Shown piece after piece: positions 53,444 through 55,406 of a stretch of DNA of 64,000 nucleotides. The stretch comes from Escherichia coli (lineage in GTDB: Bacteria > Pseudomonadota > Gammaproteobacteria > Enterobacterales > Enterobacteriaceae): NCBI RefSeq assembly GCF_002854065.1, contig NZ_CP024147.1. One strand, given 5' to 3'. Under the pieces are notes generated by a model. It saw only the letters and a program-made list of their open reading frames with translations, was not told where the DNA came from and ran no database searches. A program made the translations under genes and the position numbers. The stretch's first letter is position 1, and the number at the start of each line of letters is the position of its first letter.

Positions 53444-55333
53444 TTACGCATCACCACCGAAACGACGACGACCGGTAGAGTCATCACGACGCGGAGCGCG
53501 GCCTTCACGACGTTCGCCGCTAAAACGACGACCATCACCACGACCACCTTCACGGCGTTCACCGCTGAAGTTACGACCACCTTCACGACGCTCGCCACTG
53601 AAACCACGACCACCGCCACGACGCTCTCCGCCAGTATGCGGCTGTGCATCGCCCAGTAATTGCATATTCATCGGCTTGTTCAGAATGCGAGTACGTGTAA
53701 AGTGTTGCAGCACTTCACCCGGCATACCTTTCGGCAGTTCGATGGTGGAGTGAGAAGCAAACAGCTTAATGTTACCGATGTAACGGCTGCTGATGTCGCC
53801 TTCGTTAGCAATCGCACCAACGATATGACGAACTTCAACACCATCATCGCGGCCCACTTCAATACGGTACAACTGCATATCGCCAACATCACGACGTTCA
53901 CGACGCGGACGATCTTCACGGTCGCCACGCGGACCACGGTCGTTACGATCGCGCGGACCACGGTCATCACGGTCACGGAATTCACGTTTCGGACGCATCG
54001 GCGCATCTGGCGGTACGATCAGAGTACGTTCACCCTGTGCCATTTTCAGCAGTGCCGCAGCCAGAGTTTCGAGATCCAGCTCTTCACCTTCTGCAGTCGG
54101 CTGAATTTTGCTCAGCAGTGCGCGGTATTGATCCAGATCGCTGCTTTCCAGCTGCTGCTGTACTTTAGCGGCGAATTTTTCCAGACGGCGTTTGCCCAGC
54201 AGTTCTGCGTTCGGCAGTTCTACTTCCGGAATAGTCAGCTTCATAGTACGTTCAATGTTGCGCAGCAGACGACGCTCGCGGTTCTCAACGAACAACAGCG
54301 CGCGGCCAGCACGACCCGCACGACCGGTACGACCGATACGGTGAACGTAAGACTCAGAATCCATCGGGATATCGTAGTTAACCACCAGGCTGATACGCTC
54401 AACGTCCAGGCCACGGGCTGCAACGTCGGTCGCAATCAGGATGTCCAGACGACCATCTTTCAGGCGTTCCAGTGTCTGCTCACGCAGCGCCTGGTTCATG
54501 TCACCGTTCAGCGCGGCGCTGTTGTAGCCGTTACGCTCAAGAGCTTCAGCCACTTCCAGAGTCGCATTTTTGGTACGAACGAAGATAATCGCCGCATCAA
54601 AATCTTCCGCTTCCAGGAAACGTACCAGTGCTTCGTTTTTACGCATACCCCAGACAGTCCAGTAGCTCTGGCTGATGTCAGGACGGGTAGTCACGCTGGA
54701 CTGAATGCGCACTTCCTGCGGCTCTTTCATAAAGCGGCGGGTAATGCGACGAATCGCTTCCGGCATGGTTGCAGAGAACAGAGCGGTCTGATGACCTTCC
54801 GGGATCTGCGCCATAATAGTTTCAACGTCTTCGATGAAGCCCATGCGCAGCATTTCGTCAGCTTCATCCAGAACCAGACCGCTCAGTTTAGAGAGGTCCA
54901 GAGTGCCACGTTTCAGGTGGTCCAGCAGACGGCCCGGAGTACCGACAACGATCTGCGGCCCCTGACGCAGGGCGCGTAATTGCACGTCATAACGCTGGCC
55001 GCCGTACAGGGCAACCACATTTACGCCGCGCATGTGTTTAGAGAAATCCGTCATTGCTTCAGCAACCTGTACCGCCAGTTCGCGGGTCGGTGCCAGCACC
55101 AGAATCTGTGGTGCTTTCAGCTCAGGATCAAGATTTTGCAGCAGAGGTAAAGAGAATGCTGCAGTTTTTCCGCTCCCCGTCTGGGCCATACCCAGAACGT
55201 CGCGGCCATTCAGCAGATGTGGAATACACTCTGCCTGAATTGGAGATGGTTTTTCGTAACCCAGATCGTTAAGGGCTTCAAGGATAGGAGCCTTCAGGCC
55301 CAGATCTGCAAAAGTGGTTTCGAATTCAGCCAT
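53444..55333 (-). CDS. deaD: DEAD-box ATP-dependent RNA helicase (CsdA)
   Basis: Track ORF to 55399; start set to ATG 55333 ([21 protein letters not shown]) giving 629 aa; DEAD-box motifs (GSGKT, DEAD) and an arginine/glycine-rich C-terminal tail. Confidence 0.95.
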
Positions 55334-55406
55334 GTAGTACGTGTGCCTCAAAATTAATGGCGGCCAGTCTACATAACTCATCATGAAATTGATCAGCAAT
55401 TTTCAT
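55326..55406 (-). CDS. yrbN: Small ORF (26 aa) overlapping the deaD start, possibly yrbN
   Basis: Minus-strand ATG at 55406 through TGA at 55326..55328 gives [26 protein letters not shown]; assignment as yrbN is from memory of a 26-aa gene at this position. Confidence 0.35.

Follow-up and report, generated by a model that had tools for sequence, protein, structure and literature searches.

yrbN of Escherichia coli as a putative translated leader ORF at the start of the cold-shock helicase gene deaD

Short leader ORFs such as those of ermCL-type translation attenuation, mgtL and corL alter the folding of their mRNA and thereby uncover a downstream ribosome-binding site or control Rho, and leader ORFs with an anti-Rho role exist, for example in the mgtA and corA leaders. 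The cspA mRNA has a cold-sensing 5' UTR, a long and highly conserved leader with competing structures near the start codon, in which, to our knowledge, no leader ORF has been described. The helicase DeaD/CsdA is itself a major cold-shock RNA helicase, and mRNA stability and Rho control its expression by way of a leader of unusual length. Translationally coupled overlapping gene pairs, which work by termination-reinitiation, form a further group of described systems (Huber et al., 2019, cited in PMC11188072).

The 3' end of the deaD leader, where a 26-codon ORF runs into the deaD start, has features of all of these. As in translationally coupled pairs, the stop codon of the upstream ORF lies a few nucleotides from the deaD start codon, and base pairing with the upstream ORF is predicted to hide the deaD start region; unlike in those pairs, the upstream partner is a 26-codon ORF without a Shine-Dalgarno sequence in a long leader rather than a full-size gene, and the coupling is a predicted one. 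The locus shares with the ermCL-type, mgtL and corL leaders a short leader ORF, (predicted) alternative helices that share one strand and a leader that is a Rho target, but it differs from them in having no known stalling signal, sensed ligand or regulatory codon run and in overlapping the start of the gene that would be regulated. Like cspA, deaD is a cold-shock gene with a long conserved leader and competing structures predicted near the start codon, whereas, unlike in cspA, a leader ORF is present and our folding calculations for the yrbN/deaD region showed no temperature effect.

The window analysed here is a stretch of 64,000 nucleotides from an E. coli genome (NCBI RefSeq contig NZ_CP024147.1), and it carries the E. 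coli gene order pnp-nlpI-yrbN-deaD-mtr. The initial annotation had described a 26-codon minus-strand ORF that ends 8 nt inside deaD and had suggested that it may be the small gene yrbN. The ORF map and the overlap ATGGCTGA, which contains both the deaD start and the stop of the ORF, agree with the described layout: the frame opens with ATG, comprises 26 codons plus TGA and reads, on the minus strand from 55406 to 55326, ATGAAAATTGCTGATCAATTTCATGATGAGTTATGTAGACTGGCCGCCATTAATTTTGAGGCACACGTACTACATGGCTGA, while the deaD ATG occupies 55333..55331 on the same strand and the 629-residue DeaD protein begins MAEFETTF. The features of the coding region and of the leader are as follows.

55326..55406, minus strand: yrbN CDS, 26 codons plus TGA (RefSeq annotation and NCBIfam NF033440).
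55326..55333, minus strand: ATGGCTGA, 8 nt shared by deaD (start codon) and yrbN (stop codon); 48 of 52 distinct sequences have a stop/start overlap.
53444..55333, minus strand: deaD (csdA) CDS, 629 aa, downstream of yrbN (ORF map and RefSeq).
55346..55349, minus strand: GAGG, Shine-Dalgarno-like element of deaD, within yrbN codons 20-21 and 12 nt before the deaD ATG.
56179..56206, minus strand: promoter-like site TTTATA-16 nt-TATGAT inside nlpI (motif; the -10 element and the transcription start site are also given in PMC7430678).

By length alone the ORF is not remarkable, given that the ORF map of the surrounding 6 kb contains 89 ORFs of at least 20 aa. It is raised above chance because it is conserved, annotated and covered by published ribosome profiling. 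The 361 bases around it were matched in 5425 of 5426 complete E. coli genomes, with at least 99% identity in all matches but one, and at the matching bases RefSeq places nlpI, 'yrbN: protein YrbN' (WP_010723222.1) and deaD in that order; the RefSeq locus carrying the yrbN CDS is 100% identical to the region in the window. The peptide matched the equivalog family NCBIfam NF033440 (small_YrbN) over its full length (1-26) with 76.3 bits and E = 9.4e-22, compared with a cut-off of 33 bits, and an exact-sequence look-up of the 26 residues returned 'Uncharacterized protein YrbN ... RepID=YRBN_ECOLI'. The position is also that of yrbN, between nlpI and deaD on the same strand with its end at the deaD start, and related loci have the same layout. 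In sequence, position and strand the ORF is identical to YrbN of E. coli K-12 (b4685, C1P618, WP_010723222.1, NF033440), and we found no difference between the two. The suggestion that the ORF may be yrbN was thus correct: it is the catalogued E. coli small gene yrbN, a known gene, annotated in E. coli since 2008. Its discovery is attributed to Hemm et al. (2008) in a 2021 preprint about the leader of csdA (deaD), and a 2026 paper gives YrbN as UniProt C1P618.

Initiation at 55406, for which ribosome profiling had been proposed as a check, is documented in published data. Table S4 of 'The Cryptic Bacterial Microproteome' (PMC11188072), a re-analysis of the retapamulin (Meydan 2019) and Onc112 (Weaver 2019) data, lists MG1655 yrbN at NC_000913.3 3307852-3307933 on the minus strand, with translation initiation site (TIS) counts at its ATG of 45 in retapamulin and 12 in Onc112 and ribosome footprint (RPF) counts of 235 and 214. 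For scale, the same table gives 21 and 13 for hisL and 202 and 188 for thrL. The TIS counts at the yrbN ATG therefore indicate that ribosomes initiate there at 37°C, at a modest level. We found no Shine-Dalgarno sequence before the yrbN ATG; the most stable duplex that can form with the 16S 3' end is bulged, lies far upstream and has an energy of -3.4 kcal/mol. The GAGG element of deaD forms a duplex of -5.6 kcal/mol with the 16S 3' end, and its 12-nt spacer to the ATG is long.

The deaD transcript starts at -838, downstream of a -10 element TATGAT, which gives a leader of 838 nt (Ojha and Jain, 2020, PMC7430678). The TATGAT at 56184..56179 agrees with the reported -10 element, and yrbN corresponds to nt 766-846 of the transcript (-73 to +8 relative to the deaD ATG), at the 3' end of the leader. 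Ojha and Jain assigned the autoregulation of deaD to the mRNA level and not to translation. In their work, Rho terminated 400-900 nt into the deaD transcript in vitro, and inactivation of Rho raised the deaD-lacZ junction RNA 20-fold (PMC7430678). As yrbN falls within this termination zone, both observations would suit a mainly anti-Rho leader ORF, in which ribosomes on yrbN follow RNA polymerase and block Rho before deaD, and in which read-through rather than re-initiation is the regulated step. This explanation seems unlikely to us, as deletion of 720 nt of the leader (-820 to -101) abolished Rho dependence even though yrbN was left intact (PMC7430678), and the Rho-responsive determinants are therefore upstream of yrbN. 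A search of the minus strand yielded no terminator-like site, and yrbN overlaps deaD. A classical amino-acid attenuator of the trpL, hisL or thrL type was considered and rejected, since YrbN has no run of repeated residues or regulatory codons and no intrinsic terminator precedes deaD.

Conservation of the peptide across enterobacteria, which had been proposed as a second check, was assessed at about 90 Enterobacterales loci, assembled from 80 deaD loci (one genome per species), 10 loci reached via DeaD relatives and 11 found by a DNA pattern scan of metagenomes; five of the 11 pattern matches had no deaD nearby and were dismissed as chance. The ORF is kept across Enterobacteriaceae, Yersiniaceae, Erwiniaceae and Morganellaceae. 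Among 52 distinct sequences it has 26 codons in 37 and 25 codons in 11, and it is shortened to 18 codons in two Pantoea and to 19 in one MAG named 'Enterobacteriaceae bacterium' (locus L086), where it ends just before or within the deaD Shine-Dalgarno sequence. The stop/start overlap is accordingly not universal, with Pantoea and the L086 MAG as exceptions. In Plesiomonas the ORF begins with TTG and is closed by a stop at codon 11, approximately 40 nt upstream. Serratia has a 26-codon ORF ending 11 nt inside deaD, and the same peptide is named YrbN in Yersinia. The ORF of Morganella morganii, MKTTDMLSDGLCRLAAILYEAPLHDH, likewise has 26 codons and an 11-nt overlap with deaD, and 13 of its 26 residues are unlike those of E. 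coli; both its length and its termination point have survived heavy sequence change. In more distant DeaD relatives (67-75% identity; L083-L085, L089 and L091) the pnp-nlpI-deaD synteny is kept where the flanking sequence is long enough; a yrbN-like ORF or element is absent from these loci, and they therefore contribute no covariation data.

The yrbN frame appears, from this comparison, to be actively kept open by selection. Codons 3-6 and 17-19 are hypervariable, and none of the 25 distinct nucleotide variants of codons 3-6 contains a stop in the yrbN frame, whereas 10 and 9 of the same 25 variants contain stops in the other two frames. Mononucleotide shuffling gave an expectation of 7.5 variants with a stop (P ~1e-4, for variants that are not phylogenetically independent). 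Indels inside the ORF are of 3 nt, and 1-nt indels occur just upstream of the ATG. The nucleotide blocks and predicted helices of the region are listed below.

55409..55429, minus strand: TTTGAGCCGGTTCACACTTTT, almost invariant non-coding block shortly before the yrbN ATG; includes the 5' arm of hairpin A (55411..55424).
55363..55379, minus strand: GAGTTATGTAGACTGGC, yrbN codons 10-15, encoding the nearly invariant 'peptide core' ELCRLA and forming the 3' arm of hairpin A (alignment and folding).
55363..55424, minus strand: hairpin A (predicted), with lower stems GCCGGUU/GACUGGC, AC/GU and ACUU/GAGU (folding and pairing test).
55329..55337, minus strand: CTACATGGC, deaD start region, predicted partner of yrbN codons 10-13 (GTTATGTAG, 55369..55377) in helix B (folding).

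The pattern of conservation within yrbN does not look protein-like, in that codon periodicity is lacking: invariant columns make up 13/25, 12/24 and 10/24 at codon positions 1, 2 and 3, respectively, whereas at deaD codons ~30-180 of the same genomes the third position is invariant in 12 of 116 conserved codons. In its degree of invariance, the 21-nt non-coding stretch that precedes the ATG (TTTGAGCCGGTTCACACTTTT) equals the core of the ORF, GAGTTATGTAGACTGGCCGCC. Plesiomonas and an AT-rich contig (L094, in which the ATG is changed to ATA) have lost the ORF and retain the nucleotide blocks.

These data bear on whether YrbN acts as a protein. A trans-acting YrbN would be a 26-residue protein, probably one short helix, that binds and modulates a partner such as DeaD, the ribosome or the degradosome, with the deaD overlap serving only to ensure co-expression. 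Such a role would be in keeping with the existence of a curated family of proteins that carry the name YrbN in four Enterobacterales families, and with ribosome initiation at the yrbN ATG. The core LCRLAAI is moreover kept as amino acids wherever the ORF is intact, including in Morganella, where the sole change in the core is synonymous (TTA to TTG). However, the missing codon periodicity argues against selection on a protein, and the conserved residues coincide with one arm of an RNA helix that is itself retained where the ORF is lost. Outside the core the peptide varies freely, as the differences in half of the Morganella residues illustrate, and only 18-19 residues are made in Pantoea and the L086 MAG. 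A Pfam search with the E. coli peptide gave no domain, and the Serratia variant gave one sub-threshold match, to DUF3562 (15 bits against 26), which we took as chance; in E. coli neither yrbN nor the element has a paralogue, each being found at one place per genome. Taken together, a trans-acting YrbN appears improbable to us, and the comparison suggests that it is the translation of yrbN, more than its peptide, that is conserved. It also counsels caution, as a 'conserved small protein' inside a conserved RNA structure need not mean selection at the peptide level.

The two invariant blocks, upstream of the yrbN ATG and at codons 10-15, are complementary. In the predicted hairpin A, GCCGGUU.AC.ACUU (55424..55411) pairs with GAGU...GU.GACUGGC (55379..55363), and the A/U-rich apical part holds the yrbN AUG and the variable codons 3-6. 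Folded alone, the hairpin is predicted to share one architecture among five divergent species (E. coli, Plesiomonas, the L086 MAG, Serratia and Pantoea), and its z-scores range from -2.35 to -3.33. Over 35 distinct sequences 99% of cells are paired, and none of 500 shuffles reached the observed values. Every substitution in the 9-bp lower stem preserves pairing (seven one-sided changes and one G-C to U-A), and the second stem has one C-G to G-C change. We regard hairpin A as supported but not proven, because the compensatory pairs number two in all, each in a single lineage; covariation support is thin because both helices of the region are almost invariant. Across the whole 191 nt the folding energy was no better than that of shuffled sequences (z = -0.22), and the covariance models of Rfam 15 gave five chance-level matches only (E of at least 1.2, far below the gathering scores), none of them at 55320..55480.

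In longer folding contexts the strand that forms the 3' arm of hairpin A is predicted to pair instead with the deaD start. In this helix B, GUUAUGUAG (55377..55369) pairs with CUACAUGGC (55337..55329). In 6 of the 10 species folded, including Serratia and Edaphovirga, in which the spacing differs, the deaD AUG is predicted to be bound to yrbN codons 11-12 with a probability of 0.71-1.0, and in 8 of the 10 the probability that the AUG is unpaired is 0.00-0.09. Helix B is 93% paired across the alignment, which contains no covariation for it. The Cedecea/Buttiauxella group has a C.A mismatch in helix B, and in the one member of this group that was folded, the deaD AUG is instead predicted to lie in a local hairpin created by an ACG to ATG change nearby. 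To mimic a translating ribosome, we held yrbN nt 19-50 single-stranded in the folding of the E. coli sequence. At 37°C this constraint raised the unpaired probability of the deaD AUG from 0.01 to 0.21 and that of the deaD initiation region from 0.21 to 0.51; at 15°C the value for the AUG went from 0.00 to 0.26. The predicted yrbN/deaD structures did not differ meaningfully between the two temperatures.

The initial annotation had raised the possibility that the ORF is coupled to, or regulates, deaD translation, and such a role fits the comparative and folding evidence. On this evidence we lean slightly towards the view that yrbN acts chiefly in cis, as a deaD-coupled leader ORF, and that the sequence of its peptide would matter little. 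Codons 10-15 of yrbN would constitute one strand shared by two mutually exclusive helices: in the hairpin A state they would pair with the invariant block upstream of the yrbN ATG, and in the helix B state with the deaD start region, hiding the deaD start. Ribosomes would load at the unstructured, A/U-rich yrbN start, and a ribosome on yrbN would unwind codons 10-15, break helix B and thereby expose the deaD Shine-Dalgarno sequence and AUG. Termination at the UGA, 5 nt past the deaD AUG, could allow re-initiation there, and deaD translation would in this way be linked to ribosome loading at yrbN. Translation of yrbN may also shield the end of the leader from Rho; the anti-Rho role described above is compatible with coupling in cis and overlaps it, the two not being exclusive. 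The 21 bases that are frozen across families in which synonymous sites elsewhere are saturated would owe their invariance to a strand that serves two helices as well as the reading frame.

The opposite extreme is that the ORF is incidental, that the selected object is the RNA element alone (hairpin A, helix B and the deaD ribosome-binding site) and that translation of yrbN is low-level noise. Several of the observations above could be read in this way, namely the nucleotide-level conservation without periodicity, the invariant non-coding block just upstream, the retention of the element in Plesiomonas and the AT-rich contig after loss of the ORF, and the modest TIS counts at a start codon with no Shine-Dalgarno sequence; in addition, the N terminus of DeaD, M-A/T-E, in part dictates the TGA that follows the deaD ATG. 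An incidental ORF is nevertheless difficult to reconcile with the avoidance of stops in the hypervariable loop in the yrbN frame only, with indels restricted to 3 nt, with 26-codon frames that end on the deaD start in Morganella and Serratia despite a different local sequence, or with initiation peaks in two independent drug-arrest data sets, and we consider it distinctly unlikely. Returning to coupling in cis, the 'conserved peptide' of YrbN looks, on alignment and folding, like the footprint of an RNA switch combined with selection for an open, translated frame. It is tempting to speculate, and we do so tentatively, at somewhat less than even confidence, that conservation of the peptide is largely a by-product of the two-state RNA element, that selection keeps an open, translated frame of 25-26 codons ending on the deaD start, and that yrbN, rather than being a usual protein gene, would act as the mobile component of a switch that is driven by translation and sets the level of deaD translation, perhaps along with Rho read-through. 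As the gene itself is known, the value of these results is mechanistic and lies in the hypothesis that the deaD start is opened by the act of translating yrbN and not by the peptide made.

In Erwinia amylovora, an annotated yrbN has been reported as co-induced with the DEAD-box helicase gene, with log2 ratios of 3.65 and 3.84. We also considered an N-terminally extended DeaD that would start from the in-frame ATG ATG at 55379..55384, and rejected it since those ATGs are ACG in most genera; the ATG to ACG changes at these positions are synonymous in the yrbN frame.

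Transcription of deaD, the cold-shock RNA helicase gene, is predicted to begin within the neighbouring nlpI gene. A promoter scan returned a single sigma-70-like site:

56179..56206, minus strand, TTTATA-16 nt-TATGAT, within nlpI

This site agrees with the published deaD transcription start and -10 element, and the start predicted from it lies approximately 838 nt upstream of the deaD ATG, so that about 660 nt of the "untranslated" deaD leader is nlpI coding sequence. Between nlpI and yrbN, the 26-codon ORF whose stop overlaps the deaD start, the leader contains a further hairpin:

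55454..55477, minus strand, hairpin GCCATCACC-TTAAC-GGGTGAGGGC, approximately 40 nt 3' of the nlpI stop

A T-rich run (GTTGTTGTTCGTT) follows on the 3' side of this hairpin, which was not picked up by a simple terminator scan. Comparison across Enterobacterales revealed compensatory changes at two of its pairs, the first from A-U to G-C (five sequences) and the second from C-G to U-A (one sequence). The hairpin may act either as a leaky nlpI terminator or as a processing site within the deaD leader.

A short ORF runs into yrbN from its upstream side:

55393..55461, minus strand, 22-codon ORF with a GTG start, overlapping the yrbN start

Seven genomes (loci L026, L028, L029, L041, L043, L046 and L051 of the deaD comparison) carry a 1-nt deletion that joins the frame of this ORF to yrbN, producing a longer open frame. 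The GTG ORF is probably meaningless, but the fusion shows a lack of frame conservation upstream of the yrbN ATG. A different extension concerns deaD itself, which in the mechanical ORF list reaches up to a TTG at 55399 (651 aa) and has two further potential start codons in its frame:

55379..55384, minus strand, two ATGs in frame with deaD, preceding its accepted start by 17 and 16 codons

Most other genera have ACG in place of these ATGs, with no change to the amino acids encoded in the yrbN frame. This pattern argues that deaD begins at the accepted downstream ATG and that yrbN is the reading frame in use.

The yrbN element, which includes a predicted hairpin pairing the block upstream of the yrbN ATG with yrbN codons 10-15, had no second copy in E. 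coli genomes. The arms of this hairpin are retained in an AT-rich, endosymbiont-like metagenome contig:

L094:29-156, metagenome contig Ga0314768_1022210

Here ATA takes the place of the yrbN start codon, with a stop already at codon 3. The retained arms include a compensatory change from G-C to U-A, and a recognisable GAGG-spacer-ATG lies upstream of a DeaD homologue.

In one published study, a small protein labelled "yrbN_PAIR_0" is reported to accumulate after cold shock (Figure 2 legend, PMC6001520); the text seemingly names it YnfR, adjoining a cold-shock gene (PMC6001520).

Within Enterobacteriaceae, deaD codons 1 to ~17 (55283..55333, minus strand) appear unusually conserved at synonymous sites in columns 102-136 of alignment A1. 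This apparent conservation suggests that RNA-level constraint extends into the deaD coding region.
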